A stretch of DNA of 64,000 bases from positions 31,607 through 95,606 of the forward strand of contig JAVCDC010000125.1 in the NCBI GenBank assembly GCA_030765135.1, read 5' to 3'. Below are positions 19,464-49,630 of the stretch, one piece after another (position 1 is the stretch's first letter; every line of letters starts with the position of its first letter). Position numbers and translations under genes: made by a program. The notes under the pieces were generated by a model, which was not told where the DNA came from, did no database searches, and saw only the letters and a list, made by a program, of their open reading frames with translations. The DNA comes from Candidatus Tritonobacter lacicola. GTDB taxonomy: Bacteria; Auribacterota; Tritonobacteria; Tritonobacterales; Tritonobacteraceae.

Positions 19464-20792
19464 TCAACCGTGCGCGGCTCCGCGATCGGGTCCGGCAAAC
19501 CGCCCCTTAAGACGCTTCAATCCTTCCTTTAAACGGGTGAACAGACTGAAGAGCAGCTCGACCAGGGGTGCCGAGACGTTCCTGTAGAAGACCGGATCGA
19601 GAAGGCTCGCGCCGCGCTCGATCTGCCCCTCCCCGAGGGCCATATCGCGTATCTCCGTGTGTGGCTCTATGCGTATTCTTGATATGTTGAAGCCCGCGAG
19701 ACGCCCGCGCAGGAGGAGCCTGGCCCGCGCGTAAAATCCCAGGAGCCGGATGAAATCGGCGGCGCGGGAGCCGGGTGGATCGCCGAAGAAGTTGTAGGCC
19801 ACCCGCATGCCTCCCACGGACCGTGCGGCACTGAACGAGCGGCTTATGTCCGCCATCGTTATCCCCTTGCGCAGGAGCGAGAGAGAGTGGTCGGAGTAAG
19901 CGTCGGGGGAGAAGGATATTTTCACGCAGCCCGCGCGGCGCGCCAGGATCAGGAACTCCCTGTCGGTGTTCCGCGCGCTGAGCCACGCGCTCCAGGAGAT
20001 GCGCACATTCCTATCGATCAGCCTCTCGCAGATCGCCTCGGCGTGGGCCCTCGGCAGATTGAAGACCGAGTCCGTGAATATCACGATCTTCACGCCGTGG
20101 CGCGCTGAAATATCCTCCATCTCGCCGGCGACGTCGTCCGGGTCCTTCAGGCGCATCGCGCTCCCGCTGAGGAATGGGTAGGTGCAGTAAGCGCACTTCA
20201 GGACGCACCCCCGCTTCGTCTCCACACCCACGGCGTCCTCCCAGGAGGTGTAGAGCGAGCTGTCAAAGAGATCCCTCCTCGGACTCGGGAAGGAGCGCGG
20301 CGGGTCGGAGGCGCCTGTGAAGATGACATCGCCGCCGCTGCGGTAGTAGATCCCCTTCACGGCGGCGGGTCTCCCGAGGTTATCCAGAAGGCCCGGGAAG
20401 CTCACCTCGCCTTCCAGGCTGACGCCGTAGTCGATCAGGGGCTGATCGGGCATGATCTCCCCGGCGAAGATGGAGAACGCGGGACCTCCCACGACGATAA
20501 CCGCGCCGGGACAGGCCCCCTTTATTGCCTCGAGCATCGGCCGCAGGTAGCCGTAATAGAAGCTCACGGCGAACGTGTGCGTCGAGTCGATGCTCCTCAG
20601 GGAGATGCCCACGACATCAGGCTGGAATTCCTCCACCGCGGCCGCCAGGCCGCCCATGGGGGAACCGGAGACGTTCGGGTCGTATGTCCGCACCTCGTGG
20701 CCCTCCAGGGCGGCAGCGATGCACGAGAGGCCCAGGGGGAATATGGGCGGCTCATCCGGCCCCAGGTAAGACTGGCACAAGAGTATCTTCAT
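19464..20792 (-). CDS. B12-binding domain radical SAM enzyme (class B radical SAM)
   Basis: N-terminal cobalamin-binding Rossmann-like region (MKILLCQSY...VVGISL) followed by KRGCVLKCAYCTYPF (CxxxCxxC). Confidence 0.75.
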   Translation of the reverse strand: MKILLCQSYLGPDEPPIFPLGLSCIAAALEGHEVRTYDPNVSGSPMGGLAAAVEEFQPDVVGISLRSIDSTHTFAVSFYYGYLRPMLEAIKGACPGAVIVVGGPAFSIFAGEIMPDQPLIDYGVSLEGEVSFPGLLDNLGRPAAVKGIYYRSGGDVIFTGASDPPRSFPSPRRDLFDSSLYTSWEDAVGVETKRGCVLKCAYCTYPFLSGSAMRLKDPDDVAGEMEDISARHGVKIVIFTDSVFNLPRAHAEAICERLIDRNVRISWSAWLSARNTDREFLILARRAGCVKISFSPDAYSDHSLSLLRKGITMADISRSFSAARSVGGMRVAYNFFGDPPGSRAADFIRLLGFYARARLLLRGRLAGFNISRIRIEPHTEIRDMALGEGQIERGASLLDPVFYRNVSAPLVELLFSLFTRLKEGLKRLKGRFAGPDRGAAHG

Positions 20793-20921
20793 CTTTTTCT
20801 ATACTTTCGTACTCGTAATCTTAATCGTAATCCCATACGCCTTACCCAGAATATATTTGTTTGTGTTTTTGTTTCTTGTTATTTAGTTTTTCATTTTTAC
20901 CACAAGTCCTTTGATGCCTTT

Positions 20922-22418
20922 TCAGACCCTCGCGAAGCCCCTCAGCCTGCACTTTATTCTGCGGTAGCCCACTATGATAACCGCGTACAGCGGATTAAAT
21001 ACCTTTCTGTTAAAAGCGAACACTGCCGGAGCCGACAGCAGCAACCTCATCAGTACCCTGGGGAAGCCGTGGTTCAGGAGCAGGAACATGAGGTTGAGGT
21101 AGCTGCTCTCCCTTATGTGGAACTGCTTGCGGTAAACGTCCACCTTCTCGTCTGCCAGGATGCCGTCGGCCCTCGCCCGGTCGTAAAGCACCGTTCCGGG
21201 AAAAAGCACAAGGGAGAACGGCTGGAGGACGTACGGCCGGGGAAGCTTAAGGGCGAAGCGGAGCGTCTCCACGACGTCACGGGTGTCCTCGTACGGGTTG
21301 TCCAGAAGGAAATCGTATATCGGCATGACGGTCTTCCGGTGCCTGTTTATCAGCACCGCCGCCTTCTCCGTGAGATCCACGGGTATGCGCCTGTTGTACA
21401 GCTGCAGCGTCCGCTCGCTCGCCGACTGGATGCCCATCTGGAGCTCCACCATGCCGGCCGCCGCCAGGTGCTCCAGCTTTCCCGCGGTTATGGTCAGCGG
21501 CGACCCCAGGCAGAAAAAAGGCAGGCCGACCTTTTTCCTGTAGAGCCCGGCGAACTCGGCGATCGCCTCCTCGCCGGCGGCGAAGAAGGAATCATCGGAG
21601 AACGTGATCCTCTTTATGAAGGGGTACCTGCGAACCACCTCCGACAGCTCCGAAACGATGTTTTCAGGGCTCCGGCGCCTGAGGTATCTCTGGCCGCCGT
21701 AGAGCTTTCTCAAGAGGTGATTGCAGCAGTACGTGCAGCTGTGGGGACACCCGCGCGTGGCCATCGTCTGGTATGGAACGGTGCGCGCGTTCAGGGCCAT
21801 CGGGCTCGACCCCAGGAACTCCTCCAGCAGCTCCCTGTCCATCCTCTCGACCCGCCCCTCCCCCGCAATCATGACGTAGTCGTCCTCCAGCTCGTAATCC
21901 GGGAAGGGAAGGTTATCGAGGTCCTGGATCAGCGGACGAAGGTTATTCCTCACTATCTCGCCGTCCCTCCTGACCCATATATTGGGGACGTCCCCGGCGG
22001 GCAGGCCTTCCCCCATCCTCCGGACCAGATCGTATAGGGCCTCCTCGCCCTCACCCACGCATATCATGTCCGCGTGCCGGAGGCACTCCCCGGGCTTTAC
22101 CGTGGGATGGATCCCTCCCCAGAGAACGGGGGCGCGTATCCTCTCCTTCAGCTTTGCCGTGAGGTCCGCCACCCTCTCGAAATACATCGTGAAGAGGGAG
22201 ATGCCCACGAGGTCCGCGTCGGCGCAGAGCACGGCGACCCTGTCTAGCACGGCCGGATCGTACCGGTAGAACCTCCCGGAAAAATCCTCCAGCTCCGCGA
22301 CGGCGTCGGGAAGAAATATCTGGCGCGTCGGCACCCCGCGCGACTTGAGGTAGGCGGCCAGAGACCTCATGCCGAACGCGGTTATGTCCGAATACGGCGC
22401 TATCAGCACAACCCTCAT
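20922..22418 (-). CDS. B12-binding domain radical SAM enzyme
   Basis: MRVVLIAPYSD...DADLVGISL B12-binding region; TRGCPHSCTYCCNH CxxxCxxC motif. ATGA overlap with the downstream gene. Confidence 0.75.
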   Translation of the reverse strand: MRVVLIAPYSDITAFGMRSLAAYLKSRGVPTRQIFLPDAVAELEDFSGRFYRYDPAVLDRVAVLCADADLVGISLFTMYFERVADLTAKLKERIRAPVLWGGIHPTVKPGECLRHADMICVGEGEEALYDLVRRMGEGLPAGDVPNIWVRRDGEIVRNNLRPLIQDLDNLPFPDYELEDDYVMIAGEGRVERMDRELLEEFLGSSPMALNARTVPYQTMATRGCPHSCTYCCNHLLRKLYGGQRYLRRRSPENIVSELSEVVRRYPFIKRITFSDDSFFAAGEEAIAEFAGLYRKKVGLPFFCLGSPLTITAGKLEHLAAAGMVELQMGIQSASERTLQLYNRRIPVDLTEKAAVLINRHRKTVMPIYDFLLDNPYEDTRDVVETLRFALKLPRPYVLQPFSLVLFPGTVLYDRARADGILADEKVDVYRKQFHIRESSYLNLMFLLLNHGFPRVLMRLLLSAPAVFAFNRKVFNPLYAVIIVGYRRIKCRLRGFARV

Positions 22419-23548
22419 TTCAGCAAAGTCCCCAGTTTCCCGGCGAGGGCGTCAGCCACCACCCCGTGGCCGTCGTAGTTCCAGTGAATCCAGCGGAGGG
22501 CCTTCCCCCTCTCGAGAAAATCGTCCCTGAAAACACCCTGTAGGCCGATGTAGTCAACGCCGAGGACGGCCGCTAGATCTCCGAGGTCCTTATCGAAAAA
22601 ATCTCCGTCGAAAGAGGGGTCGATAGACCTGTAACGCTCCTCGCTCTCCGGCTCGTAGGCCAGCGTCTCCATGCAGACCAGGAGGAAACCGCACCCCCGC
22701 TCACCGCAGAGCCTGGCCATCTCGCCTATCAGCCGCTTGTTGAGCGCGTAGTTTGCAGCGTAGGCCTCATCGGGGGAGGCGGTGCAGAGTGTCAGGAAAC
22801 CTCCCAGGCTCTCTTCCTCTTCCTCGTAGCGCTTCGCCACGTTCTCCATGAGCCTCTTCCTGCGCCTCTCCACCAGGAGTGAAGCAAGGGCGGAGTTCCG
22901 GGTGAGGGCGCTGACAAACCCCTTCAACCTGTACGCCCCCGTCTCCCTGAAGCCCGGGTCAAGGCGCAGCTCCCCCTCCTCCCCGGCCGTGTAAAAAGGC
23001 CGCAGTGTCTCAGGGGCTGTCTCCCTTGAGACGTCCTCGATGTCCGTCCTGGGCATGAAGAAGAGTACGACCATGTCCGGCGAGAAATCCAGGACGTCGT
23101 TCTCCAGGATGAGAAGCTCCTCCGTCGTCGTAGCGCCGGACCTTCCGAAGTTCATGACCTCCACGCCGAAGGGGAACTCGCCCCCGAGCCTCTCCTCCGC
23201 GAGGGAGAGAAAGGTCTTCTCCTGCTCGACCTGCATCGCCTCGACGAAGCTGTCCCCCAGCACGGCGACCCGGCGGGCATCCTCCGGCTTCTCCGGCTGC
23301 CGCTCCCGGTCCCTCCACCCGTGCCTGTTTATCCTGCCCGTTATCGGATGGTCGTTCTCCTCGTAGTACCAGTACGCGGCGCCGGGGACCATCCTCCAGC
23401 TGATGAGAGGGTCCGGCATGGTCCAGGAGAGCCTGGCGCCGAAAAGATGTGTCGCCCTCAGTATAAGTTCAATTGCGAGGAACGTAACAACCAGCGCGAT
23501 AGCCGCAGCCCCTAACTTCCTGACAAGAGCGGATTTCAGTAATCTCAC
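22415..23548 (-). CDS. SGNH/GDSL-family hydrolase, membrane-anchored
   Basis: N-terminal TM anchor; VLGDSF (block I), NFGRSG (block II), WIHWNYDGH (block V, DxxH). Confidence 0.6.
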   Translation of the reverse strand: MRLLKSALVRKLGAAAIALVVTFLAIELILRATHLFGARLSWTMPDPLISWRMVPGAAYWYYEENDHPITGRINRHGWRDRERQPEKPEDARRVAVLGDSFVEAMQVEQEKTFLSLAEERLGGEFPFGVEVMNFGRSGATTTEELLILENDVLDFSPDMVVLFFMPRTDIEDVSRETAPETLRPFYTAGEEGELRLDPGFRETGAYRLKGFVSALTRNSALASLLVERRRKRLMENVAKRYEEEEESLGGFLTLCTASPDEAYAANYALNKRLIGEMARLCGERGCGFLLVCMETLAYEPESEERYRSIDPSFDGDFFDKDLGDLAAVLGVDYIGLQGVFRDDFLERGKALRWIHWNYDGHGVVADALAGKLGTLLK

Positions 23549-23607: not shown

Positions 23608-25182
23608 CTAACGTATCTTGTGAATAAAGTTCCTGATGCGGTCGAGGTCGCCCGTCAGAACGGACCTGACTCCCTTATAGACTACTATCCCGGAATCACC
23701 GAGACGGCAAAGGAGAGAATACATGGGATTGAGAAAACTACGGCCCAACAACCTCGTGAAGAACCGCCGACTCAGCACGCCGAGCAACCACCCGGGGAAA
23801 CAGCTGTATCCCGCCAGGTAGATAAGAAAATTGGGATATGAGCCGAGAGGGGTGTGGAGATGCTTGCCGTAAATCTGCCGCCTCTCGTCCGTCAGCCACC
23901 CGTCCCTCTTGCCTATCTCGTAGAGCTTCGTGCCGGGGAAGGGGACCAGCGAAGACCTCTTCAGCCAGAACGGCCGGGGCAGCCGCAGGAGAAGATCGAG
24001 GGTCTCCATCGTCTCCCCGGGAGTCTCCCACGGGTTATCGAGGATGACGTGATAACAGGGCCAGAACATGCGGGGCGTGAAACAGCTGATTATCCGCGCC
24101 GCTTTGAGAATCTGCTCGTTCGTCGAACTCCGGTTGAACATGGAGCGTGTCCTCTCGTTTCCCGTCTGGACGCCCATTTCGACAAAGACCAGGCCGGCGT
24201 CGATCATGAGCTCCATCTTCTTCTCCGTGATCGTCGCGGGGCTCACCTGTATGTAGAAGGGCAGCCCGATAGCCTCTTTATAAAGGCGGCAGAAATCCGC
24301 GATCTCCGCCTCGCTCCTGAGAGCGAAGGTGTCGTCGAAGATGTTGATCCCCTCTATCCCGGGGAACTTCGCGGTGATCTCCCCGAGCTCGGCGATGATG
24401 TTCGGCACGCTTCTCTTGCGAAGGTGCTTCTGGCGGGGAAACATCTCCTTCATGATGCTTATCGAGCAGTAGTAGCAGCTGTGGGGGCACCCCCTCACGG
24501 TGTAAGTCTTGTACGTCCTCCACATCTTCCCGTACGGGTCGTAGAGGGTGCTCTCGGGAGACGGCTCCCTGGGGAAGGAGCGGCAGAGGAGCTCGGGCGT
24601 CATGCCGACTATGCGGCCCTCGTCCATGTGATAAACGTAGTGGTCCTCCAGGTCGTAATCGTAAAACGGGAGGCTGTCGAGGTCCTCGACCAGCGGGCGG
24701 AGCGGGTTCCTCTTCACCCTCCCGTCCTCCTTGAACCAGACTCCGCGGGTATCGGTGCAGTCCCGGCCCTCGCCCATCCTGTTTAATATCTCCTCGAGGG
24801 CCTCCTCCCCGTCGCCGATGCACACCATGTCCGCGTGCTCGAGGGCCTCCTCGGGCTTGACCGTGGGGTGAATACCGCCCCATATGACGGGAGGGCCGCC
24901 CGTCCCCTTCACGGCGCGGGTGAGCTGGACGGCGCGGTCGAAGTAGTTTGTCATGAGCGAAACGCCTACCAGGTCGGCATCTCCGCAGAGGGCGGCGACC
25001 TCGTCCAGGACGCGCGGCTCGTACCTGTACTCGTACCCTGCCCTGTGCTTCATCATCGCGACGCCTCCGGGGAGAAAAATAATGTTCACACCGTGCCCCC
25101 TGCTCTTGAGGTACGCCGATATAGACCTCACTCCGAAAGCGCTGAGGTCAGGCGGCGTCGGCGCCACTAAAACAACCTTCAT
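23608..25182 (-). CDS. B12-binding domain radical SAM enzyme
   Basis: MKVVLVAPTPP...DADLVGVSL; VRGCPHSCYYCSIS CxxxCxxC; about 45% identity by eye to the 20922..22418 paralog. GAGGAG 6 nt upstream of the ATG. Confidence 0.75.
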   Translation of the reverse strand: MKVVLVAPTPPDLSAFGVRSISAYLKSRGHGVNIIFLPGGVAMMKHRAGYEYRYEPRVLDEVAALCGDADLVGVSLMTNYFDRAVQLTRAVKGTGGPPVIWGGIHPTVKPEEALEHADMVCIGDGEEALEEILNRMGEGRDCTDTRGVWFKEDGRVKRNPLRPLVEDLDSLPFYDYDLEDHYVYHMDEGRIVGMTPELLCRSFPREPSPESTLYDPYGKMWRTYKTYTVRGCPHSCYYCSISIMKEMFPRQKHLRKRSVPNIIAELGEITAKFPGIEGINIFDDTFALRSEAEIADFCRLYKEAIGLPFYIQVSPATITEKKMELMIDAGLVFVEMGVQTGNERTRSMFNRSSTNEQILKAARIISCFTPRMFWPCYHVILDNPWETPGETMETLDLLLRLPRPFWLKRSSLVPFPGTKLYEIGKRDGWLTDERRQIYGKHLHTPLGSYPNFLIYLAGYSCFPGWLLGVLSRRFFTRLLGRSFLNPMYSLLCRLGDSGIVVYKGVRSVLTGDLDRIRNFIHKIR

Positions 25183-25504: not shown

Positions 25505-27031
25505 TTATGTTTTATTATTCTTACCCCCCCTCGCCGCGAGGTAAAGCCTGATCAGGCGCCGCCTGATATAGCTCCACCCCTTCCTGAAGATAAAGAGGGG
25601 ATCGTTTACGATGAAGAGGCGGTACTCGCGAAGCCGCCGGGTGAGGCTCCGGTGATACCTGTAAACCCAGCCCGCTATCTCGCTTGCCGCCTTCTCGAAG
25701 TCATCCCTGCTCACGTCCTTCATGAAGTGGTTTACGGGCCACGCGCCGAACCGCCTCCAGTCGGGTTTTTCCGGGACAAGCCCCAGCTCCGCGCACCTCT
25801 CCATGAGCGGGCTCCCGGGCAGCGGCTCGAAGATATTGAAGATGATCGACGGCGTCCTGAGCGAGCGCATAAGAGAGAAGGTCCGGCGGATGTCGTCGAG
25901 CGTTTCCTCCGGGAAGCCGATGATGAAGTTCGCCCCGGCCGTTATACCGTTCCTGTACATGAGCTCGTACGCCTCCCGTATCTGGCGCAGGTCGACCCTC
26001 TTCTCTATGATTTTCAGCATCCTGTCGCTTCCCGACTCGATGCCTATCGAGAGACCGGCGCAGCCCGCCCTCTTCATCAGCTTCAGGAGCGGCTCCTCGA
26101 GAATATCGGCCCTGGTCATGGTGAGCCATGAAATATTCAGCCGCTCCTCTATCATGCGCTCACACAGCTCGGTGACGTACTCCCGGTTGACGGTAAAGTT
26201 ATCGTCGAGGAAGTTGACTATCCTGGCATTGAAAGTCCGGGTGAGGTATCTGACTTCCTCGATGACCCTGCCCGGCGACCGGAACCGCACGGTCCTCCTC
26301 CAGAAGAGGGGTGACGAGCAGTAGGCGCACTTCCACGGGCACCCCCTCGACGCCATGACGCCGACGAACGGCATCCGCCTGTAGGCTCCGGGCCTCAGAA
26401 CGAGGTGCGCGGCCGGCACGGGGAGAGCGTCCAGGTCCTCGATACACTCCCTGTCCGGGTTGTGGATCGTCTTTCCTCCTTCGATAAACGAGATGCCACG
26501 AATGGACCTCAGCCCCGGCCCCTTCCCCTCCAGGGAGGCGCAAAGCTCGGCAATGGTGCTCTCCCCCTCGCCCCGGACGATAAAGTCTATCCCGCCGTAG
26601 CCCAGGACATCATCGGGAAGGAAAGTCGGGTGGGCGCCTCCCCAGGCGACGGCGGTGGACGGGTTCATCTCCTTCGCGATCCTGCTCACCTTGAGGGCGC
26701 TGCCCACCTCCCCAGTGAGAACGCTGACCCCCACGAAGTCCGGCGAGAAATCCCCGATCACGCGCCGGACCTCCCGCCACACGGGATGGTCGTCCTCCCC
26801 GAGCGACCTCAGGTAGCGGGCGTGGCTCTCTCCCCGCTCCCTGAACATCGTAAACTCGTCCGGGACTATGCCGACCCCCAGGCCGGTGCTGTTGTCACCG
26901 TGATAAATACCCACCTCGTGCCCTTCCGCTTCGAGAACGGCAGCGAGGTAACCCACCCCGAGCGAGAAGATTGGAAGCTCCTCGAAGCCCTTCAGCCTCT
27001 TATAGGGCGGCCTGATAAGCAGCGCTCTCAT
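25505..27031 (-). CDS. B12-binding domain radical SAM enzyme
   Basis: MRALLIRPPYKRL...PDFVGVSV; SRGCPWKCAYCSSP CxxxCxxC. Its start codon is flush against the 30-bp palindromic motif. Confidence 0.75.
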   Translation of the reverse strand: MRALLIRPPYKRLKGFEELPIFSLGVGYLAAVLEAEGHEVGIYHGDNSTGLGVGIVPDEFTMFRERGESHARYLRSLGEDDHPVWREVRRVIGDFSPDFVGVSVLTGEVGSALKVSRIAKEMNPSTAVAWGGAHPTFLPDDVLGYGGIDFIVRGEGESTIAELCASLEGKGPGLRSIRGISFIEGGKTIHNPDRECIEDLDALPVPAAHLVLRPGAYRRMPFVGVMASRGCPWKCAYCSSPLFWRRTVRFRSPGRVIEEVRYLTRTFNARIVNFLDDNFTVNREYVTELCERMIEERLNISWLTMTRADILEEPLLKLMKRAGCAGLSIGIESGSDRMLKIIEKRVDLRQIREAYELMYRNGITAGANFIIGFPEETLDDIRRTFSLMRSLRTPSIIFNIFEPLPGSPLMERCAELGLVPEKPDWRRFGAWPVNHFMKDVSRDDFEKAASEIAGWVYRYHRSLTRRLREYRLFIVNDPLFIFRKGWSYIRRRLIRLYLAARGGKNNKT

Positions 27032-27060: not shown

Positions 27061-27130
27061 TACAAAAAATTTTTGAAATTCCGAGGCAGTAAATTAATTC
27101 GCTCCGCTCATTCATCCTGCATCCCGTATC

Positions 27131-29368: not shown

Positions 29369-29369
29369 T

Positions 29370-41330: not shown

Positions 41331-42764
41331 CTATCCCCCGGTCCAGCAGCGGAGGATGCCCGAGCACGTCCCCGAATAAGCGTCCCGGCCCGCTATATGC
41401 TCGACCACATCCGCGTAAACTCTGCGCCGCGAATCAGTATCCAGAGAAGTGTTGTGCCAGAGAAGGACAAATACGCCCCCGTGATCGCTGACGGTGGAGA
41501 GAAGGGCTTCGACCTCCGACAGCGCCTCACCATCCCTCCCCTCGTTCCTGCCGGCCGTGAGGGCGGCGTCCGTCGCCGTAACCGGAATTTCCCAGAGGGG
41601 CAGCTCGCGGCCGCGGCGGAGATCGAACACCCTGTATGGAAAACAGACCCCGCAGCGGAAACCATTGCTCCCGCGAAAGGAAAGCGTGGAATCGTAGAGC
41701 AAACCGGCATCCGCCATGGCACTCCATGTCACCGGGTTCTTCCACAAAAGGCGCTGCTGCCTCGCGCCGGGGGCCGCCCTGCCGATGAGACGGGAGAGCC
41801 TGCGCCTCTCCTCCGCCATCCTCCGGGGATCATCATGGCCGTAAACGCCGCCGTGGAGCCCTATCTCGTGGCCGCGGCTCGCTATGTACTTCACGAGCTG
41901 GCTCGGGCCGGCGTCCAGTATCGAGTAGACCTCCTCCGGGCCGGTATCGTAGTCCGTGCGTATGAAGAAACTCGACCTCATTCCGAGGCGCTCCTCCAGG
42001 TTCATGATGAAGTCGAACGTCCAGTAGGGATCCCGCCTAGTCCCCCTGGCGACGGCAAGAGCGTCGAGGGCCAGGCGCGCGGAGGCGGCAAACCTCCCCC
42101 TGAGCATATCCCCGGCCATTTCCCGTATGACCCGGCGAGGGGTGTACTTCCGGATACGGTCAACGTTATGGGTGAGACAGACGGCGAACTTCCTCCCCCT
42201 CCAACCCGGCCGATCCCCGAGGTTGACGTCCAGCTCGCCGACCCATGAACGGAAAAGGTCGAGGTACCGGTTCACGATGGGATAGGAAAGGAACCCCTCC
42301 CTGAAAGCGAGGCTCGATGATACGGGGAAGCAGCCATACTCATCCCTCTCCCCGGGGATATACTCCTCGTACCTGGTTATCATAAAAAATGTGGCCGCCG
42401 GGATGTCGATATTGGTACTGAGCATCGAGCGGTCCCGCACGAAGAACGGCTCGACGCTCTCCCCGCCCGTGTATATGACCGGAAGACCGTCGTATTCCGG
42501 GAGAGGCGTAGCGGGCAGGGACCCCGCCTCCTTGTAGGCCTCGTAGAGGAGAGGAGAACGGTAGATGTGAATATGCTTTTTAGCCTGGATAGCCGGGACG
42601 GAGCTTCCGTATGAGACGAGGAGGTCTTCCGGGGGGATCGCGGAAATGTCGGATAAAGGAAAGAGATGATAATCGAGCCCCGAAAGCTCCATCATGGCTT
42701 TCAGCGCGTAACATACCTCCGCGGAATGCGGGCCTTTCTCGTATGCTAAAGCTATCCTGGACAT
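41331..42764 (-). CDS. polysaccharide deacetylase-like (CE4/NodB-related) protein
   Basis: CLTHNVDR and HEIGLHGG motifs, with an N-terminal extra domain. Confidence 0.45.
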   Translation of the reverse strand: MSRIALAYEKGPHSAEVCYALKAMMELSGLDYHLFPLSDISAIPPEDLLVSYGSSVPAIQAKKHIHIYRSPLLYEAYKEAGSLPATPLPEYDGLPVIYTGGESVEPFFVRDRSMLSTNIDIPAATFFMITRYEEYIPGERDEYGCFPVSSSLAFREGFLSYPIVNRYLDLFRSWVGELDVNLGDRPGWRGRKFAVCLTHNVDRIRKYTPRRVIREMAGDMLRGRFAASARLALDALAVARGTRRDPYWTFDFIMNLEERLGMRSSFFIRTDYDTGPEEVYSILDAGPSQLVKYIASRGHEIGLHGGVYGHDDPRRMAEERRRLSRLIGRAAPGARQQRLLWKNPVTWSAMADAGLLYDSTLSFRGSNGFRCGVCFPYRVFDLRRGRELPLWEIPVTATDAALTAGRNEGRDGEALSEVEALLSTVSDHGGVFVLLWHNTSLDTDSRRRVYADVVEHIAGRDAYSGTCSGILRCWTGG

Positions 42765-43170: not shown

Positions 43171-44124
43171 CTAATACCGACCGAACAGCTTATTCATGTA
43201 GCCGACAGCCGCGCCGGCCACGCCGGCTATCCCCTTCAAGACGCCGGCAAACGGGTAGACTACGGCCGTCAAGGCTCCATACCGGGCGCACACGCGAAAA
43301 GCGTCCGGCACGTGGAGGAGGAGGAGGAGCACGAGCATCACGGGAGGCAGCAGTGGCAGCCAGGGGATCGCGACGAGCGAAGCCAGAAGGAGAGCCGCGC
43401 CGGCGACCTGCGCCCTGATCCATATATCGCTTCTGAATATATCCCCCCTGAGATGCGGACGGTACCGGGCGTACAGGTAATTCCGCGTCAGGTAACCCCT
43501 CAGGGTGCTCTTGTAGTGGTGCCACGCTATCGCTTCCGCAACATACACAAGCCTGTAGCCGGCGGAGATTATCTTCTGGTTCAGGTCCGCGTCGAGGCAG
43601 GAGTTGTACAGGGCCTCTTCGAACACCCCGAAGCGCCTGAACACCTCCGGCCGGTAGACGGCGTTGGCCGAGGTGATATGCATCGCGTATTTCGGCTGAG
43701 AATCAAACTTCTTATCAACGTCGTACCCGGCGACCCGCGCTATCAGGTTCGAGCTGGCGGGGGTCAGAAGGTGCCCCCCGGCGCCCATGACGCTCTCGTC
43801 TCCGAACTCCGGCAGGATGAGCGAAAGCCAGTCCGGCGAAACCTGCACGTCGGATTCCACGAGCGCTATATAGTCGCCGGCGGCCATGGCGAGCGCCGCG
43901 TTCAGGGCGGCCGACTCACCCCTGTTGGGCTGACGGACAAGGTCGATAATCTCCGGGAACCTCTCCCCGTACGATAACGCCACGTCATAGGTGCCATCGG
44001 TGGAGCCGTCGTCCACGACAATGATGCGGCGCTCGAAACCACCCTCAAGGTCAAGGACAGACTGTATGGCCGCGCCTATGGTACCGGCGGCGTTATATGC
44101 GGGCATTAAAAAGCTGATCTTCAT
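43171..44124 (-). CDS. GT2 family glycosyltransferase with C-terminal membrane anchor
   Basis: Start MKISFLMPAYNAAGTI at 44124 (ATGA overlap with the upstream rSAM stop); IVVDDGSTDGT and ESDVQVSPDW motifs; C-terminal TM helices. Confidence 0.6.
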   Translation of the reverse strand: MKISFLMPAYNAAGTIGAAIQSVLDLEGGFERRIIVVDDGSTDGTYDVALSYGERFPEIIDLVRQPNRGESAALNAALAMAAGDYIALVESDVQVSPDWLSLILPEFGDESVMGAGGHLLTPASSNLIARVAGYDVDKKFDSQPKYAMHITSANAVYRPEVFRRFGVFEEALYNSCLDADLNQKIISAGYRLVYVAEAIAWHHYKSTLRGYLTRNYLYARYRPHLRGDIFRSDIWIRAQVAGAALLLASLVAIPWLPLLPPVMLVLLLLLHVPDAFRVCARYGALTAVVYPFAGVLKGIAGVAGAAVGYMNKLFGRY

Positions 44125-45548
44125 CTCTTTTGAAAAAATAGCTCGAACGCAATCCGGAGGTCCTCCTTCAACGCCCTCCAAGACGCGCAGCGCCTGAGCC
44201 TCTTAAGGATAAACCGCGGGCGGAGGTAGAACTTACGGTAGGCCTTCCTCTGGAGCCTCTCCAGGTCGCTCGCCGTGAGCTGCGGGTAGCTTATGACGCT
44301 CTTGCCCAGCGGGTTGATGTAATCCGAGTCATCGATGAGATACCCCTCCGACTTGCAGAAGCGGTAGAACTCCGTTCCCTTGAACGGCGTTGCCACCGAG
44401 AACATCGCGTTGTCGATTCCCAGATTCCCGGCCACCCTGACCGTGTAGGCGATGTCCTCCTCCGTCTCCTCGGGACACGTCCCGAACATCAGGTTGAGCT
44501 TCGGGTCTATCCCGTGCCTCTTGAGGGTGGACACGGCCTCACGCGCCGTCTCGGCCTTCAGGTCCTTCCTTATGTAGTCAAGGACCTTCTGCTTGAAGCT
44601 CTCCACGCCTATATCGATGGAGACACAGCCCGACTTTGCCAGCGCGCCTATCACCTCCTCGTCCGTCAGGAAGTCGGCCCGCGAGAGGCACCCCCACTCA
44701 AGCGACAGGCCCTCTATCCTGCCGCATATCTCGAGCGTCCGCTCCCTGCCCCAGAGGAACTGGTCGTCCAGGACCATGACCGATTTGTAGCCGCCCGCGG
44801 CGATCGCCTCGAACTCGGCCGCGACCCTTCCCGCGGAGGCCACGGCGGGGGGGGGCTTCCTGCCGAAGTGCTTGATATGCTCCAGCTCCCTGGCAAAGCT
44901 TATGGAATTGGGGACGCAGAAGAGGCACCTGAAGGCGCAGCCGCGGGACGCCATCATGGCCGTATACGGGCGCCCGCGGAATTTCGGATTGAAGTACGAG
45001 AGGGCATACCTCCTGATGGAGGCGTGAAAGCGGTCTGGGACAGGCAGCATGTCCATATCCACCAGTTCCGACGGCTTGCCGTGGACCACCCGGCCATCGC
45101 GGAGCATGGAGACGCCGGGGGGCGTCTCCCCGTCAACGCACTGGAGTATCTTGTTCTCGATCTCCCCCCGGAAGACGACCACGCGCTGATCGATAAGGTA
45201 CTGCTCGGGAACACGGGTCGGCTCGGGGCCGTGGAGGATGAATCTCACATCGCCCTTCCTCTCGAGGATCATGCCCATGAAGTGGAGGTCGGTACGCTTG
45301 GAGAGGATGACGGAGTGGATTATATATATGTCGGAGTCGTCTCCCCCGACGCGCTTGATAAAAGCCGCGCCGTCCAGCTTCTCCAGGCCCGAGTCGATGT
45401 AGCCGACATCGTGTCCCGCCTCGGTCAGCATCGTGAGGGGGTAGAGGTTCGCCAGGTCCGGGAAATGGTAAAGCTCGTAGGTGCAGCCGGCGAGACGCTC
45501 CGGCACCTTATCCTCTATCGACGGTGGTTCGAGAAACGTTATTTTCAT
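44121..45548 (-). CDS. B12-binding domain radical SAM enzyme
   Basis: MKITFLEPPS...B12-binding region; SRGCAFRCLFCVPN CxxxCxxC. Confidence 0.75.
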   Translation of the reverse strand: MKITFLEPPSIEDKVPERLAGCTYELYHFPDLANLYPLTMLTEAGHDVGYIDSGLEKLDGAAFIKRVGGDDSDIYIIHSVILSKRTDLHFMGMILERKGDVRFILHGPEPTRVPEQYLIDQRVVVFRGEIENKILQCVDGETPPGVSMLRDGRVVHGKPSELVDMDMLPVPDRFHASIRRYALSYFNPKFRGRPYTAMMASRGCAFRCLFCVPNSISFARELEHIKHFGRKPPPAVASAGRVAAEFEAIAAGGYKSVMVLDDQFLWGRERTLEICGRIEGLSLEWGCLSRADFLTDEEVIGALAKSGCVSIDIGVESFKQKVLDYIRKDLKAETAREAVSTLKRHGIDPKLNLMFGTCPEETEEDIAYTVRVAGNLGIDNAMFSVATPFKGTEFYRFCKSEGYLIDDSDYINPLGKSVISYPQLTASDLERLQRKAYRKFYLRPRFILKRLRRCASWRALKEDLRIAFELFFQKR

Positions 45549-45702: not shown

Positions 45703-46440
45703 TCACTCTTTTTCCGCCACGAAGACCATATTCGTCCCGAGGCCGAGCCGGTTAAAGAGGTTATCAAACTTCGCCAGGCAGTAAACGCCATTTGTCAGCA
45801 GCCGGCTGAGAGTCGAGCCGGCCCATATCTCGCTCTGCCTGTGGTCGCGGCGGCGCCGCAGGCGCGTATACAGCCAGACTAGGGACCGCACACAGGGCCA
45901 TCCGACCGTGAAGTAGTCCCGGACGCGAAACCCGTCCAGGAGGGCCGCCGCCTCCTCCCGCGTGAACCTCCGGAGGTGGCCGCCGATCTCGTCGAGGAAG
46001 GTGTACTGGCGCGGGTCTTTCGGGACCGTGAGTATGAGCCTGCCGCCGCTCTTCAAGAGGCCGTGTATATGCCCGACCACCCGAGCTGGCTCACGAACGT
46101 GCTCGAGGACCTCGCAGCAGACCGCCAGATCGCAGGATCCGGGCGCGAGCCCCACTATAGGGCCCTCGAAATCCGCAACGCGGAAATCGGCCCGGACGCC
46201 CATCTCCGCCGCGATGCGCCGGGCCATGTCGATCACCTTCTTCTCGCTGTCGACACCGGTCACGTCGAAGCCCGCGCGGGCCAGGGAAATCGCCACCCTC
46301 CCCGACCCGCAGCCCACGTCCACGACTTTTCCGGGGCCCCGCCCCGCTATCCGGAGCAGGATGCCGGTGAGGTTCCTCATGGCCGGGTCCCCCCACTGCC
46401 ACTTCCTTATTAGATCCTCACTTTCTCTGTATATTCGCAT
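45703..46440 (-). CDS. class I SAM-dependent methyltransferase
   Basis: VVDVGCGSGRVAISLARAGFDVTGVD (motif I) and LKSGGRLILTV (post-I/II). Confidence 0.7.
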   Translation of the reverse strand: MRIYRESEDLIRKWQWGDPAMRNLTGILLRIAGRGPGKVVDVGCGSGRVAISLARAGFDVTGVDSEKKVIDMARRIAAEMGVRADFRVADFEGPIVGLAPGSCDLAVCCEVLEHVREPARVVGHIHGLLKSGGRLILTVPKDPRQYTFLDEIGGHLRRFTREEAAALLDGFRVRDYFTVGWPCVRSLVWLYTRLRRRRDHRQSEIWAGSTLSRLLTNGVYCLAKFDNLFNRLGLGTNMVFVAEKE

Positions 46441-46550: not shown

Positions 46551-46652
46551 ACGTTACACGTCACACGTTCCACGTTACACGTTTATTTCTTCACGTCACA
46601 CGTTCCACGTTACACGTTTATTTCTTCACGTCACACGTTACACGTTACACGA
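46551..46652. repeat. tandem heptamer array D (CACGTNN)n, about 12 copies with an internal 36-bp duplication
   Basis: Read directly; it lies between the methyltransferase start (46440) and the rSAM/SPASM stop (46645). Confidence 0.9.
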
Positions 46653-47577
46653 TATTGTACTTCACCATATCGCACTTACTGCATATTCCCGCCGGGTAGC
46701 TCCTCCTGAAACGGGCGAAACCCTCTCCGTGCCATATTTCTTTTATCTCACGGTCCACGAGGCTTCCGCATTTGTACGCCCGCAGGAGGCAGCAGGGGCT
46801 GACGTCCCCCTCCACGTTGACGTAAACGTAGCTGTCGGTCCTCAGGCAGTACCGGTCAAAATGGCCCGCGAGGCGGACGGCAAAACTCTGGAAATTGGCG
46901 CAGCGGATATCCAGACCACTCCCCGAGGCGATCCTCCGGCAGCGCCCGACAAGCTCCCGCTCGCGGACGGCGTCCAGCTTCGGAAGGCTATCGTTCATCG
47001 TCCTGTCGACCCTGACGAGGTTGACGAAGTCCATATCCGCCTCGAGGGCGAAGCGAACGACGCCCTGCACGGCCTCCTCGTCCGCCATCACGACCTGCAG
47101 CCCCACGGAGCGGACCCGCGGCCTCATGGCGGCGAAACAGGCAGCGTTCTCCTTGACCTTTTCGTGCGCCGTGTGGCCTATCGTCGACTCTCCCTCCATC
47201 GATATGCTCACCTGATGCACGCCAACCTCGACCAACCCCCGCGCCAGGCCGCCCTCGAGGAGATAGCCGTTGGTCGTGAGGCGGACCCCGGCCCGGGGGG
47301 AACCGAGCATGACGAGCTTCACCATGTCGAGGAGGCGCGGGTGAAGGAGCGGCTCCCCCCACCCCGTCAGGACCACGGTGCGGGGTCTCCCCATATTCGC
47401 CGCTATCCTCTCGAAGAGAGAGAAGTCCATATCCACCGGGTCGACGCCCAGGGCTTCTCTGGGGCACATCGCGCAGGTGAAGTTGCACCTGTTGGTGATC
47501 TCGACCTGGACCTCCTCGGGGGTAACGCTCACCCTCTTGAAGAGGCACCGTAAAAATTTCCTCGCTTCATGCATCAT
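46645..47577 (-). CDS. radical SAM / SPASM-domain protein
   Basis: EITNRCNFTCAMCP (CxxxCxxC) near the N-terminus, and a C-terminal Cys-rich region CCLLRAYKCGSL...CSKCD consistent with SPASM/twitch auxiliary clusters; 310 aa. Confidence 0.6.
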   Translation of the reverse strand: MMHEARKFLRCLFKRVSVTPEEVQVEITNRCNFTCAMCPREALGVDPVDMDFSLFERIAANMGRPRTVVLTGWGEPLLHPRLLDMVKLVMLGSPRAGVRLTTNGYLLEGGLARGLVEVGVHQVSISMEGESTIGHTAHEKVKENAACFAAMRPRVRSVGLQVVMADEEAVQGVVRFALEADMDFVNLVRVDRTMNDSLPKLDAVRERELVGRCRRIASGSGLDIRCANFQSFAVRLAGHFDRYCLRTDSYVYVNVEGDVSPCCLLRAYKCGSLVDREIKEIWHGEGFARFRRSYPAGICSKCDMVKYNIV

Positions 47578-47960
47578 TTGAAGTCACAGCTTTTTATAAC
47601 CACGGATTCGACGGATTACCACACCGAAAAATCCCTCTAATCCGCGTTTTTACTTTCCCCTTCTCTCTGTTTCAACCACTACTGCCAAATAATGCGAGCT
47701 CAACCACCTAAATGGCATTCTGTAAATACGACTAGTTCCCATGCAACCTGCCGTTAATCCCACTGACTGATGATATATGCCGCCCTTAAATACAATAGAT
47801 CTGTAATGCTGCCTTCAGTATTTTCATGTGTATGCTAACTGCGATCCCGACGGACCCTTCGGATTTCACCCCCGGAGAATCCGTTCAATCCGCATAATCC
47901 GCGGTTTCATTCCTTATTTCATTCCTCTTTTTTTCTTATCTTCTTTCAGGTATCACTCTT

Positions 47961-48107
47961 TGCGTTCTCTGCGCCTCTGCGGTTCAATATTTTTCTCTTT
48001 TAACTTTTAACCTTCAACTTTCAACCGTTTTAACCTCTGCGTCCTCTGCGCCTCCGCGGTTCAGTATTTTTCTCTTTTAACCTTCAACTTTCAACCGTAT
48101 TTAACCT
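47961..48107. repeat. tandem direct repeat, 2 x ~72 bp, inside a ~600-bp ORF-free AT-rich region
   Basis: gcgttctctgcgcctctgcggttcaatatttttctcttttaacttttaaccttcaactttcaaccgttttaacct / ctgcgtcctctgcgcctccgcggttcagtatttttctcttttaaccttcaactttcaaccgtatttaacct. Confidence 0.85.
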
Positions 48108-48184
48108 TCGTGTTTTCTCTAATTCGTGTAAATTAGTGTAATTCGTGGACCTTTTTCATTGCTTTTTCAGTCTTCTGTCTTCTG

Positions 48185-49630
48185 TCATCTGTCCTCTCGT
48201 GCCTTTTTCCACCGGAAGGCCGTCTTCATAAACGCGACGAAGCCGAGGAGGATGGCCGGCGCGGCCCGCCACTGCGTGAACATCCTCCCGGCATAATTAC
48301 AGATAATCCTCGGCCTCAGGTAGAACCTCCGGTACATCCTGCGCATCTGTCCCTCGAGCACGGCCTTCGTGAGCCCCCTGGGCACGAATACTGCGTTCAC
48401 CAGGTTCATCTTTCGCCAGTCGTCGTCGAAATCTCCGTAAGCCGCAGCCTCGCGGTATATCTGGGAGCCGGGGAAAGGGGTCAGCATCGTCACCGTCATA
48501 TCGTCCAGGGGAATAGACATGGCAAAATCGATCGTCTCTCTGAGCGACTCCTCGTTCTCCGTCTGGTGCCCCGTTATGAAGAAGCCCTTCGACAGGATTC
48601 CCGCCTCCTTCGTCCACCGGACCGCCCTCCTCACCGCCTCCAATTTTAACCCCTTTCCCACGAGGTCTAGTATCCTCTGGCTGCCGCTCTCTATGCCGTA
48701 GCCGATCTGCCAGCACCCTGCCCTTTTGAGCAGGGAGAGCATCTCCGGCTCGACCGCGTTCGCCCTCGCCAGGCACGACCAGGAGAGGTCGATCTCCTCC
48801 CGGAGGATCATCTCGCAGATCTCTCGCACCCTCCCGGGAAATAAGAAGAACGTGTCATCCTCGAAGAGGACCTCCCGGACGCCGTGCTCCATGATAAGCC
48901 TCTTGAGCATATCGATGATGTAACCGGGGCTGTACGCCCTGCATTTCGCGCCGAAGACCGAGCGGTCGCAGAACGTGCACTTGTTGGGGCAGCCTCTCGA
49001 GGTCACGATCGAGACCGCGGGAAGGCGGCGGAACCTGAAAGGACCGGGGTGGTACGCGCCGGGGAAGCCGGGAAGAAGGTCAAAGGCGGGAAAGGGGAGC
49101 CTGTCCATATCCTCTATGAAGGGTCTCCGCGCAGCCTCGATGATTTCCCCGTCTTTCCGGTACACGATCCCTTTTATGGACGAGAGATCACGGCCGGCGG
49201 ACAGCGCGTCCAGGAGGTCCACTATCAGATCCTCCCCCTCGCCCAGAACGCCGACATCGAAGGGGGGAAAGAGCTCCATGGTCAGCCGGGGGACCGCCGT
49301 GACGTGCGCCCCTCCTATTATAACGCTGATGCGCGGGTCGAGCTCCTTCAGCCTCCCCGCCAGCGAGGCGGCGCTGTTGATGGAGAGCGTGAGGGCGCTT
49401 AAGCCGACGAAGCCGGGCCCGTGCTCCATGATGGCGGAAACCGTCTGTTCGAGGCTCAAACCCAAGGAACAGGCCTCTACCAGACCCACCCCGTACCCCT
49501 CCCGCCTGGCAACGGCGGCCAGGTTGCACACACCCATCGCGGGAAGAGTGTTCGCGGCCGCCGAGAGCGCCCCGTAGCGCTCCACCAGGCCGAGCGGAGC
49601 GTTGACAAATACAATGCAGGGCTTCGACAT
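48185..49630 (-). CDS. B12-binding domain radical SAM enzyme
   Basis: MSKPCIVFVNAPLGLVERYG...VGLSAL B12-binding region; SRGCPNKCTFCDRS CxxxCxxC. Confidence 0.75.
   Translation of the reverse strand: MSKPCIVFVNAPLGLVERYGALSAAANTLPAMGVCNLAAVARREGYGVGLVEACSLGLSLEQTVSAIMEHGPGFVGLSALTLSINSAASLAGRLKELDPRISVIIGGAHVTAVPRLTMELFPPFDVGVLGEGEDLIVDLLDALSAGRDLSSIKGIVYRKDGEIIEAARRPFIEDMDRLPFPAFDLLPGFPGAYHPGPFRFRRLPAVSIVTSRGCPNKCTFCDRSVFGAKCRAYSPGYIIDMLKRLIMEHGVREVLFEDDTFFLFPGRVREICEMILREEIDLSWSCLARANAVEPEMLSLLKRAGCWQIGYGIESGSQRILDLVGKGLKLEAVRRAVRWTKEAGILSKGFFITGHQTENEESLRETIDFAMSIPLDDMTVTMLTPFPGSQIYREAAAYGDFDDDWRKMNLVNAVFVPRGLTKAVLEGQMRRMYRRFYLRPRIICNYAGRMFTQWRAAPAILLGFVAFMKTAFRWKKAREDR

Follow-up and report, generated by a model that had tools for sequence, protein, structure and literature searches.

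Why should six radical S-adenosylmethionine (SAM) genes, each with an apparent cobalamin (B12)-binding domain, lie among genes for cell-envelope glycan assembly? The question is raised by a 64,000-nucleotide (nt) stretch of Candidatus Tritonobacter lacicola (assembly GCA_030765135.1, contig JAVCDC010000125.1, positions 31,607 to 95,606 of the forward strand), which was analyzed as a whole and is called the window below. The original prediction read the six as paralogous enzymes that act in series, by radical methylation or another radical modification, on a sugar, polyprenyl or lipid substrate during assembly of an unusual surface polymer. Ca. Tritonobacter lacicola is an Auribacterota metagenome-assembled genome (MAG) from the anoxic zone of Ace Lake (Antarctica); the paper on this MAG reports an encoded cobalamin ABC transporter and does not mention the radical SAM (rSAM) and envelope locus. 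The window has a GC content of about 60%, and nearly all genes between about 5.8 and 55.7 kb are on the minus strand, as are all genes described below. The presence of TolB and of a Pal/OmpA-type gene (60.7-62.8 kb) points to a diderm envelope.

With somewhat better than even confidence, we read the island as the junction of two independently conserved rSAM cassettes, modules A and B, that would tailor lipid-linked precursors of envelope glycoconjugates in an anaerobic diderm. Module A consists of a Wzx-type flippase, a PF03279 acyltransferase, sulfatase-fold enzymes of the alkaline-phosphatase (AlkP) superfamily and four rSAM genes in the order R4-R3-R2-R1, followed by a candidate GT-C gene. 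Module B consists of R6, an rSAM/SPASM gene, a SAM-dependent methyltransferase, R5 and a GT2 glycosyltransferase, next to a PpgS-like GT2 gene and a DUF2304 gene. The predicted association of the rSAM genes with envelope glycoconjugate genes is borne out, since this linkage is conserved across phyla.

The radical SAM proteins and their nearest relatives

All six open reading frames (ORFs) were recovered exactly at their predicted coordinates: R1 (19464-20792), R2 (20922-22418), R3 (23608-25182), R4 (25505-27031), R5 (44121-45548) and R6 (48185-49630). Each protein contains the CxxxCxxC motif once (at residues 196, 224, 232, 231, 204 and 214 in R1 to R6) and matches the radical SAM domain PF04055 above its gathering score, with 50-92 bits. 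A cobalamin-binding N-terminus had been proposed for all six. It was detected with PF02310 (gathering score 32.1 bits) in R1 (50.8 bits), R2 (57.4), R3 (63.0), R4 (73.5) and R6 (70.9). These five have the domain architecture that defines class B, in which a B12 Rossmann domain precedes a partial TIM barrel with the CxxxCxxC motif. R5 reached just 17.2 bits; PF02310 is annotated in roughly half of its orthologs, and its structural model has a Rossmann-type N-terminal domain. A seventh rSAM gene, of the SPASM type and not among the six originally counted, lies between R5 and R6 (46645-47577); its product matches PF04055 and PF13186 and carries CNFTCAMC at residue 31. The term "paralogous" holds at the level of the superfamily and not for a close family: R2 and R3 are 44% identical, R4 and R6 36%, and every other pair 22-30%, so the six are not recent paralogs and, as shown below, they belong to two cassettes.

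None of R1-R6 reached the cutoff of any NCBIfam equivalog. The models for BchE, HpnJ, HpnR, PhpK, TsrM, KedN5, the methyl-coenzyme M reductase (MCR) methylase, AprD4, ApyD, BzaD, TIGR04072 and Tes all scored well below their thresholds. R1 aligned best, and over its full length, with BzaD (TIGR04385, 243 bits against a cutoff of 450) and with the ladderane-type model TIGR04072 (236 against 360). No bza or cob neighbors were found in the window or in 79 related loci, and no fatty acid synthesis (FAS) genes in the window or the conserved clusters. The best curated models for R2 and R3 were HpnJ (92-99 bits), TIGR04013 and TIGR04072, all at about 80-99 bits; for R4, BchE (202), ApyD (197) and HpnJ (176), all below cutoff; for R5, HpnJ (156) and AprD4 (99); and for R6, HpnJ (207) and BchE (194). 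HpnJ (TIGR03471) requires 577.6 bits, which R2-R6 fail, and hpn and shc genes are absent from the window; BchE (TIGR02026) requires 481 bits, and photosynthesis genes are likewise absent. AprD4 (NF033070) requires 500 bits, with R4 at 98 and R6 at 88. The highest score with HpnR (TIGR04367, cutoff 650) was 105 bits, and the SPASM protein scored 30 bits with Tes (NF045702, cutoff 450).

These scores agree with the original statement that no characterized pathway has this gene set. Neither cassette is described in the literature that we found on radical SAM or B12 enzymes together with envelope glycan or lipid topics, and a 2026 review of lipid-modifying rSAM enzymes (Blue-Lahom et al., PMC13459092) describes nothing tied to LpxL-type acyltransferases or envelope glycan machinery.

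Searches of PDB sequences gave distant matches, with AprD4 nearest to R4, R5 and R6 and TsrM nearest to R1; at E<=1e-3, nothing in the PDB was related to R2. AprD4 dehydrates 1,2-diols of sugars, and its N-terminal domain is not known to bind cobalamin. AlphaFold models of R1 and R5 were built from family alignments. The R1 model (pLDDT 91.1) superposed best on cobalamin enzymes, namely TsrM (TM-score 0.76), MgmA, CysS, OxsB and TokK. The R5 model (pLDDT 87.6) has an N-terminal beta-alpha-beta domain, and its best solved match was AprD4 with bound paromamine (6fd2; TM-score 0.75/0.79, E 2e-24). Because of this AprD4-like model and the sub-threshold PF02310 score, R5 is unlikely to be a methylase and appears instead to be an AprD4/HpnJ-like enzyme with a degenerate B12-like N-terminal domain. 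Radical methylation by the whole set, one of the options first proposed, is thus an assumption, since the nearest relatives of R4 and R6 (BchE, HpnJ and AprD4) are not methylases either.

Two independently conserved cassettes

R1 anchors module A. Its family includes more than 450 homologs of 424-439 amino acids (aa) with 43-50% identity, and 501 representative clusters at E<=1e-30 in a library of 1.8 billion proteins. A profile of R1 and 19 homologs was used to retrieve 79 loci from species-representative genomes, in which genes were called and clustered de novo and the cluster representatives annotated with Pfam and NCBIfam. The loci come from Desulfobacterota (Smithella, Syntrophales, Desulfarculales, Desulfovibrionaceae, the cable bacteria Electrothrix and Electronema, and the cultured Solidesulfovibrio aerotolerans DSM 16695), Nitrospirota (magnetotactic ones included), Planctomycetota (Kuenenia included), Kiritimatiellia, LCP-89, Calditrichota and Schekmanbacteria. 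A co-directional operon recurs among them and runs from Wzx, an AlkP-superfamily gene (PF01663), a PF03279 acyltransferase and several B12-rSAM genes to R1 and another PF03279 gene, followed by an alpha/beta-hydrolase-like gene, a GT9 glycosyltransferase, a DUF362/ferredoxin gene, another B12-rSAM gene and a GT2 gene. Partners were counted among genes within six positions on either side of R1 in the 50 loci of at least 15 kb. The most constant was the PF03279 acyltransferase (41 of 50, often in two or three copies), followed by another B12-rSAM (34), GT9 (19), Wzx (15, plus three with a second Wzx cluster), the AlkP-superfamily gene (14) and an AMP-binding ligase (10). The long loci hold one to six B12-rSAM genes each. 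Six in one envelope locus is therefore not unique: 17 of the 50 have four to six, and multi-B12-rSAM envelope loci are common in the lineages that carry module A.

Orthology among these enzymes was assigned by best-hit margins and a neighbor-joining tree of 132 B12-rSAMs. The additional rSAMs fell together with the window proteins into separate clades, that of R2 with members in 45 loci, that of R3 in 23 and that of R4 in 11 (40-52% identity, with a 265-bit margin over other rSAM types). Their order upstream of R1 is nested: R2-R1 was found in 13 loci, R3-R2-R1 in 11 and R4-R3-R2-R1 in eight, the last from Nitrospirota, several Desulfobacterota and Planctomycetota, with five deviating arrangements. 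By their separate clades and conserved nested order, R1-R4 are four old, distinct enzymes in a fixed cassette. Such nesting is as expected for a pathway that was lengthened step by step from a core of R1 and an acyltransferase, and to this extent the predicted serial action fits.

In the window, R4-R3-R2-R1 stand in this order too, except that a GDSL/SGNH-type hydrolase gene is inserted between R3 and R2 (22415-23548; PF13472 at 32.2 bits, just below cutoff; one N-terminal transmembrane (TM) helix, predicted like all those below by hydropathy scan). This gene is absent from L088, a second Auribacterota contig that reads Wzx-LpxL-Sulf-Sulf-R4-R3-R2-R1, Sulf being a sulfatase-fold gene, with Wzx heading the cassette; an SGNH-like cluster (c21) occurs in a few module A loci. 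Upstream in the window are the Wzx-type (MOP) flippase (38578-40068; PF01943 93 bits, 13 predicted TM helices) and the LpxL/PatA-type acyltransferase (37634-38710; PF03279 61 bits). The acyltransferase ORF overlaps the end of Wzx by 133 nt. Its start is probably downstream of the listed one, near 38580, because the 316-aa ortholog in L088 overlaps Wzx by only 4 nt. Membership is established for the PF03279 superfamily and no further: the window protein scored 25-55 bits with the LpxL and phosphatidylinositol mannoside (PIM) acyltransferase equivalogs and the cluster representative 30-46 bits, against cutoffs of 248-540 for LpxL and LpxM.

The constancy of PF03279 also underlies the strongest alternative, according to which the target of module A is no glycan but the hydrocarbon chains of membrane lipids or lipids of the lipid A type. 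R1-R4 would branch, cyclize or cross-link acyl chains delivered by the PF03279 enzymes, much as has been proposed for the B12-rSAM of the ladderane cluster or shown for hopanoid and GDGT methylases. It overlaps with our reading and differs in taking the acyl chain as the sole target. R1 aligns in full with TIGR04072, which is named "lipid biosynthesis B12-binding/radical SAM protein", and Smithella-type loci have a phytoene-desaturase-like flavoprotein among their rSAMs, as in the ladderane cluster. Acyl ligases of the AMP-binding family recur as counted above, and the GT9 of module A loci, at 128-136 bits just under the heptosyltransferase II/III cutoffs (128 against 134.6), points to a lipid A-core acceptor. 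However, R1 falls short of the TIGR04072 cutoff and scores equally with BzaD, the desaturase-like gene occurs in just three to four loci, and no acyl carrier protein (ACP), FabF, FabZ or isoprenoid gene was found in the window or the conserved clusters. Lipid modification by rSAM enzymes is, moreover, almost entirely isoprenoid-based according to the review (PMC13459092). We therefore regard a purely acyl-directed module A as unlikely.

Some module A loci carry further genes of biosynthetic type. In a group that comes mainly from Planctomycetota (L055, L073, L076, L077 from Kuenenia, L078, L083, L061 and L009), the gene after the AMP-binding ligase encodes a protein above the NCBIfam equivalog cutoff for scyllo-inosose 3-dehydrogenase IolM (540 against 450 bits). 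A cyclitol or inosose may thus be a building block of these versions. Loci from LCP-89 have instead a fusion of AMP-ligase and chorismate mutase together with a DAHP/Kdo8P-synthase-like gene. A NodU/CmcH-like carbamoyltransferase-like gene (607 aa, recognized by eye only) accompanies SGNH hydrolases in L013, L038, L044 and L050, which suggests O-carbamoylation or O-acyl editing of the product there.

Module B is anchored by R5, an AprD4/HpnJ-like rSAM whose family reaches 50-60% identity in Planctomycetota, Chloroflexota, Actinomycetota, Omnitrophota, Nitrospinota and other groups. Three contexts and a metagenome scan with an R5 profile gave 64 orthologue-level loci, and flanks were counted in the 23 R5 loci with at least two genes on each side (R5 orthologs at 38-60% identity). 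In the window, R5 is directly followed by a GT2 glycosyltransferase (43171-44181; PF00535 96.6 bits) with two C-terminal TM helices at residues 253-292, and a gene of this type directly follows R5 in 18 of the 23 loci. The SPASM type adjoins R5 in 15 and an R6-type B12-rSAM in 11. R6, the first gene of the module, has orthologs of 43-53% identity directly upstream of SPASM-R5 in L091, L094, L097, L100, L101, L110, L116 and L123. The class I SAM methyltransferase (45703-46440; PF08241 73 bits) was found in three of the 23 loci, with orthologs of 41-42% identity at the equivalent position in L091/L098 and L101. Eight loci include a GT2 gene at up to 58% identity to the PpgS-like, polyprenyl-phosphate sugar synthase-type gene of the window (40474-41205; NF058614 PpgS 99.6 bits against 370), and three a small DUF2304 membrane protein with three TM helices (40127-40489; PF10066 81.8 bits), which comes after the PpgS-like gene in L101, L114, L116/117, L134 and L141/142. 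The usual order, R6-SPASM-(methyltransferase)-R5-GT2-(PpgS-like GT2-DUF2304), matches the window exactly. A UbiA prenyltransferase lies directly upstream in one pair of loci. The flanks otherwise vary, with Wzz, GT4, a UDP-sugar epimerase and dehydrogenase, a borderline PMT_2 protein, surface proteins or unrelated genes, and module B thus behaves as a compact, portable cassette.

Among the 79 module A loci, no R5 or R6 ortholog occurs within 10 kb of R1, and no gene of LpxL type or of R1-R3 type was found in the module B loci. The modules are therefore independent, and their juxtaposition is specific to this lineage. This bears directly on the idea, part of the original prediction, that all six rSAMs act in series on a single substrate and that the island is one pathway. 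All genes point the same way across some 50 kb, most of them separated by short gaps, and repeat arrays upstream of genes in both halves, described below, hint at common regulation in this organism. As each module is complete elsewhere without the other, we nevertheless consider a single six-enzyme series decidedly unlikely and retain two cassettes.

A clustering without functional meaning, such as an rSAM-rich anaerobe with a variable polysaccharide island might show, is very improbable. Polysaccharide islands are mosaic, and several genes of this one (YfhO-like, DUF7033, GDSL and WaaP-like) are conserved with neither cassette. Yet the R4-R3-R2-R1 order is kept at 40-52% identity in four phyla and the module B order in many metagenomic lineages, and identities of 40-50% exclude a single recently transferred mobile element. 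Synteny in relatives had been proposed as one check, and since both orders turn up again in dozens of loci outside this phylum, chance does not explain them.

Surrounding genes and regulatory elements

Read along the coding strand, from high to low coordinates, the island begins with a PAS histidine kinase (54103-55662), a WaaP/Kdo-kinase-family gene (52488-54086), a response regulator-GGDEF gene (51528-52472), a metallo-beta-lactamase (MBL)-fold gene and a Gfo/Idh/MocA oxidoreductase gene that adjoins R6. Module B then runs from R6 through the SPASM, methyltransferase and R5 genes to the GT2 gene and is followed by an 89-aa ORF, a DUF7033 gene, the PpgS-like GT2 and DUF2304. Wzx and the PF03279 gene come next, then two sulfatase-fold genes, a YfhO-like gene, two more sulfatase-fold genes, R4, R3, the GDSL-like hydrolase gene, R2 and R1. 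Beyond R1 lie a nine-TM protein with a weak PMT_2 match, a 1126-aa protein without Pfam domains, a nine-TM TPR protein, a Wzy_C (O-antigen-ligase-like) protein and more polytopic membrane proteins. These assignments come from Pfam and NCBIfam scans, and the sulfatase-fold, YfhO-like, DUF7033, GDSL, WaaP-like, Gfo/Idh/MocA and MBL genes show no conserved partnership with R1 or R5 outside Auribacterota.

The families first named for the neighbors hold at family level, with two matches to be read narrowly. The polytopic protein next to R1 (17855-19498; nine TM helices, 35-nt overlap with the end of R1) is a candidate GT-C glycosyltransferase with a PMT_2 match of 22 bits, below the PF13231 cutoff of 26.1; a PMT_2 match of 36 bits lies at 5844-7460, and PMT_2 genes come after R1-SPASM-LpxL in LCP-89 loci. 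The YfhO-like protein (31428-33770; nine TM helices), also a GT-C candidate, matches PF09586 with 58.7 bits over its C-terminal ~70 residues only, and its gene is a lineage-specific insertion, absent from L088 and from other phyla. The DUF7033/VimE-like protein (41331-42764; PF23019 83 bits, NF053580 VimE 161 bits against 440) is a putative sugar N-deacetylase; it is lineage-specific and conserved with neither module. The WaaP-family protein of 532 aa, encoded between the histidine kinase and the GGDEF regulator, contains two Kdo/WaaP-family kinase stretches (PF06293, 106 bits). It is likewise conserved with neither module and could be a lipopolysaccharide (LPS)-core kinase or a signaling kinase.

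An element of about 110 nt at 27035-27150 (minus strand), resembling a promoter or 5' leader, abuts the start codon of R4, and a second copy at 31167-31282 abuts that of the sulfatase-fold gene at 29370-31163 (Sulf_29370). The copies share exact 40-mers (27074-27113 and 31206-31245), and R4 and Sulf_29370 both start ATGAGAGCG. In L088, a ~97% identical element lies directly upstream of R4 (about 5030-5135), at a place where the neighboring proteins are ~72% identical. Within the element is a 26-codon ORF, MNERSELIYCLGISKIF[C/Y]NKFASAAS, whose end lies 3 nt upstream of the start codon. A test for RNA structure was negative (z = +1.06), and the element could be a promoter/operator or a translated leader. 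Given its conservation at the DNA level, its duplication before a sulfatase-fold gene and its abutment on start codons, the ORF behaves as a regulatory element. Of 17 small ORFs in gaps it was the only one conserved in a search of 164 related loci.

This ORF is also pertinent to the suggestion that the rSAMs mature a ribosomal peptide (RiPP) of proteusin or sactipeptide type, which would make the 26 codons a precursor gene. Clusters of these types typically include B12-rSAM C-methylases and SPASM enzymes. A SPASM rSAM is present here, and R4 has a RiPP enzyme, ApyD, as its second-best model (197 bits), with weaker matches to rSAM_ocin_1. We find a RiPP scarcely credible, as the ORF has the marks of a regulatory element, the other 16 gap ORFs are unconserved, there is no peptidase or ABC exporter, and the conserved partners of the rSAMs are acyltransferases, flippases and glycosyltransferases. 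Membership in a RiPP cluster was rejected, with no conserved precursor peptide gene beside the maturases.

Four arrays of 10-20 heptads CACGT(T/C)A (plus strand) were found at 27135-27232, 29125-29367, 31281-31425 and 46557-46645. They are the sole such clusters in 64 kb, are all intergenic and lie, on the coding strand, upstream of R4, the sulfatase-fold gene at 27235-29046, Sulf_29370 and the module B methyltransferase gene; they may be operator arrays for some regulator. The 607-nt gap between R6 and the SPASM gene (47578-48184) contains an imperfect direct repeat of ~65 nt, ggttgaaagttgaaggttaaaag...gaaccgcngaggcgcagag, and no convincing ORF. A scan of 40-57 kb for promoters and terminators returned counts at the level of shuffled sequence and was uninformative.

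Riboswitch control of the rSAM genes, by cobalamin for example, was considered and rejected: Rfam at gathering thresholds gave a single riboswitch, outside the cassettes. It is a full-length c-di-GMP-I riboswitch (RF01051, 17410-17498, minus strand), which scores 57.8 bits where the gathering score is 35. The 551-nt leader that contains it belongs to the 1126-aa ORF (13923-17303; no Pfam domain, no predicted TM helix), immediately downstream of module A. With this riboswitch at one end of the island and the GGDEF regulator and histidine kinase at the other, cyclic di-GMP may couple surface-protein expression to the island.

The four sulfatase-fold proteins stand at the periphery of module A, at 35689-37563 (PF00884 157 bits, five N-terminal TM helices), 33775-35628, 29370-31163 and 27235-29046; L088 has two copies at the equivalent position. 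All four have T-N-P-S-H at the nucleophile position, where sulfatases have the formylglycine motif C/S-x-P-x-R, and therefore cannot be formylglycine sulfatases. All have three to five predicted N-terminal TM helices. LtaS and EptA use a Thr nucleophile. The multi-TM anchor, sulfatase-fold ectodomain and Thr place the four in the LtaS/EptA-type class, an architectural assignment only: EptA models gave 30-44 bits against 561, and SGSH_C was matched as well. The least probable alternative, in which the SPASM rSAM is an anaerobic sulfatase-maturating enzyme (anSME) and the island degrades sulfated glycans, takes up the co-occurrence of four PF00884 proteins with one rSAM-SPASM and their best NCBIfam names (arylsulfatase, choline-sulfatase), but is excluded by the motif and TM anchors just described, by scores of 149-176 bits against sulfatase cutoffs of 433-481, by the lack of an anSME model among the 25 best matches of the SPASM protein and by the conserved partners of its gene, which are R5 and GT2 and not sulfatases.

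A proposed pathway and its likeness to known systems

The analysis shows gene content, domain architecture, orthology, the conserved and nested gene order, the independence of the modules and the lack of a formylglycine motif in the sulfatase-fold proteins; from these, the substrates, membrane sides, reaction types and order of action in the following scheme are inferred. In the two-cassette reading, module A would work on the cytoplasmic side of the membrane and make a sugar-lipid that carries an acyl chain. This chain would be added by the LpxL/PatA-type enzyme to a lipid-anchored sugar, R1 would perform the founding radical step, and R2, R3 and R4 would add later steps in that hierarchy. 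For R1-R4, cobalamin-dependent C-methylation at unactivated acyl or sugar carbons is the most probable reaction, though we put it forward tentatively; other radical C-C chemistry is the alternative. Wzx would flip the product, after which the membrane-anchored Thr-type phosphotransferase-like enzymes could add phospho-substituents at the outer face and the PMT_2-like and YfhO-like GT-C enzymes sugars. In module B, the TM-anchored GT2 would form a lipid-linked sugar, probably on polyprenyl phosphate. R5 would then dehydrate or rearrange this sugar, as a diol-dehydratase or ring-rearranging enzyme of AprD4/HpnJ type and not as a methylase, and R6, the SPASM enzyme and the methyltransferase would tailor it further. 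The PpgS-like GT2, DUF2304 and GT-C proteins may provide an Arn/PpgS-type route to the surface, with the module B product as donor for the GT-C enzymes.

Several points weigh against this scheme. Since no enzyme reaches a curated equivalog cutoff, the reaction types rest on distant analogy, and methylation is one option among several, because B12-rSAMs include cyclases, ring-contractases and dehydratases. The module A acceptor could be something other than a sugar-lipid, given the low scores of the PF03279 proteins with LpxL and PatA models; module A loci contain few glycosyltransferases and no recognized initiating phosphoglycosyltransferase. Outside Auribacterota, R1 is not consistently accompanied by the sulfatase-fold, YfhO, DUF7033 or GDSL genes, and their participation is lineage-specific at best. 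Finally, 37 loci fall into a class with R1 only, a number inflated by truncated contigs.

A more specific version of the module A part of the scheme would make it an unrecognized pathway, widespread in anaerobic diderms (Desulfobacterota with the cable bacteria, Nitrospirota, Planctomycetota with the anammox bacteria, Kiritimatiellia and Auribacterota), in which up to four or five cobalamin-dependent rSAMs, in the hierarchy R1 to R4, act on an acylated outer-membrane saccharolipid, and in which the products would be multiply C-alkylated or cyclized lipid A-like or glycolipid structures made without oxygen. We consider this conceivable but doubtful. If true, these products could account for lipid biomarkers with branched or quaternary carbons that are still orphans.

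The superfamilies of these enzymes are known, and there are precedents for the radical tailoring of lipids and of free or lipid-bound sugars, so far from single enzymes (HpnJ, Cds, HpnP/R, GenK and AprD4). The present analysis adds two compact and widely distributed rSAM cassettes with conserved gene order that probably serve envelope glycoconjugate biosynthesis. They are frequent in anaerobes of environmental importance, and no curated family claims them; one is a fixed series of four B12-rSAM enzymes linked with LpxL-type acyltransferases. The discovery value lies in the conserved nested module more than in this one window. The series from R1 to R4-R3-R2-R1 amounts to a natural experiment, in which carriers of one to four enzymes should show progressively elaborated surface molecules. 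This makes the chemistry testable by comparative mass spectrometry, and at least one carrier, S. aerotolerans DSM 16695, is in culture. The outcome matters for how anaerobes build their outer membranes and for the range of reactions that B12-rSAM enzymes catalyze, and it may help to explain where some sedimentary lipids of unexplained origin come from.

One precedent for module B is hopanoid tailoring, in which HpnI (a GT2), then HpnK (a deacetylase) and then HpnJ (rSAM ring contraction) act on a glycolipid, with calditol synthase (Cds) as a further example (PMC13459092). In these systems, as proposed here, a glycosyltransferase puts a hexosamine on a lipid and an rSAM enzyme remodels the lipid-bound sugar. 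R5 and R6 have their best curated scores with HpnJ (156 and 207 bits, full-length alignments) and adjoin GT2 genes and, in the window, a deacetylase-like gene. Both are, however, far below the HpnJ cutoff of 578, the hopanoid genes shc, hpnH and hpnG are absent, the GT2 has no HpnI match, and the deacetylase-like gene is of the DUF7033 family and not conserved with module B, which in turn adds a SPASM rSAM and a class I methyltransferase.

Among solved structures, R5 is matched best by AprD4, which works with AprD3 in the C3' deoxygenation of aminoglycosides and is also the top PDB sequence hit of R4, R5 and R6. AprD4 has the two-domain layout of R5, its B12-like N-terminal domain is degenerate, and its substrate is a sugar. 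Identity is, in contrast, only 20-21%, the NCBIfam model gives 99 bits against 500, and the window has no aminoglycoside genes; an AprD3-type reductase was not identified, whereas a Gfo/Idh/MocA oxidoreductase gene stands beside R6. The two best curated families of R1, TIGR04072 (itself a lipid enzyme predicted from context) and BzaD, align in full at 236 and 243 bits, but below their cutoffs of 360 and 450 and without FAS/ACP or bza/cob genes nearby; the R1 family is consistently found with PF03279, Wzx and GT9 instead.

In the Arn (ArnC, ArnD, ArnE/F and ArnT) and mycobacterial PpgS/Rv3632 systems, a GT2 makes a polyprenyl-phosphate sugar, which is modified while lipid-linked and, with a small membrane helper, transferred outside by a GT-C enzyme. 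The window has similar parts in its PpgS-like GT2 (99.6 bits), DUF2304, deacetylase-like protein and PMT_2/YfhO-type membrane proteins. It differs in that the PpgS cutoff of 370 is not reached and ArnC scores only 26 bits, and neither pathway is known to include a radical SAM step. The sulfatase-fold proteins share with LtaS, EptA and OpgB the N-terminal multi-TM anchor, the extracytoplasmic sulfatase-fold domain and Thr at the nucleophile position, but match EptA models with just 30-44 bits and also match SGSH_C.

With the class B methylases (TsrM, TokK, CysS, MgmA, GenK, HpnP/HpnR and Gmm), R1-R4 and R6 share the defining domain architecture, and the R1 model superposes on several of them. 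Unlike these enzymes, those of the window reach no curated methylase model, R2 has no solved relative by sequence, and the genes are set among envelope acyltransferases and flippases, not among natural-product or cofactor genes. Iterative or sequential methylation is known from TokK and CysS. These are single iterative enzymes, whereas module A has up to four or five different enzymes in a fixed order.

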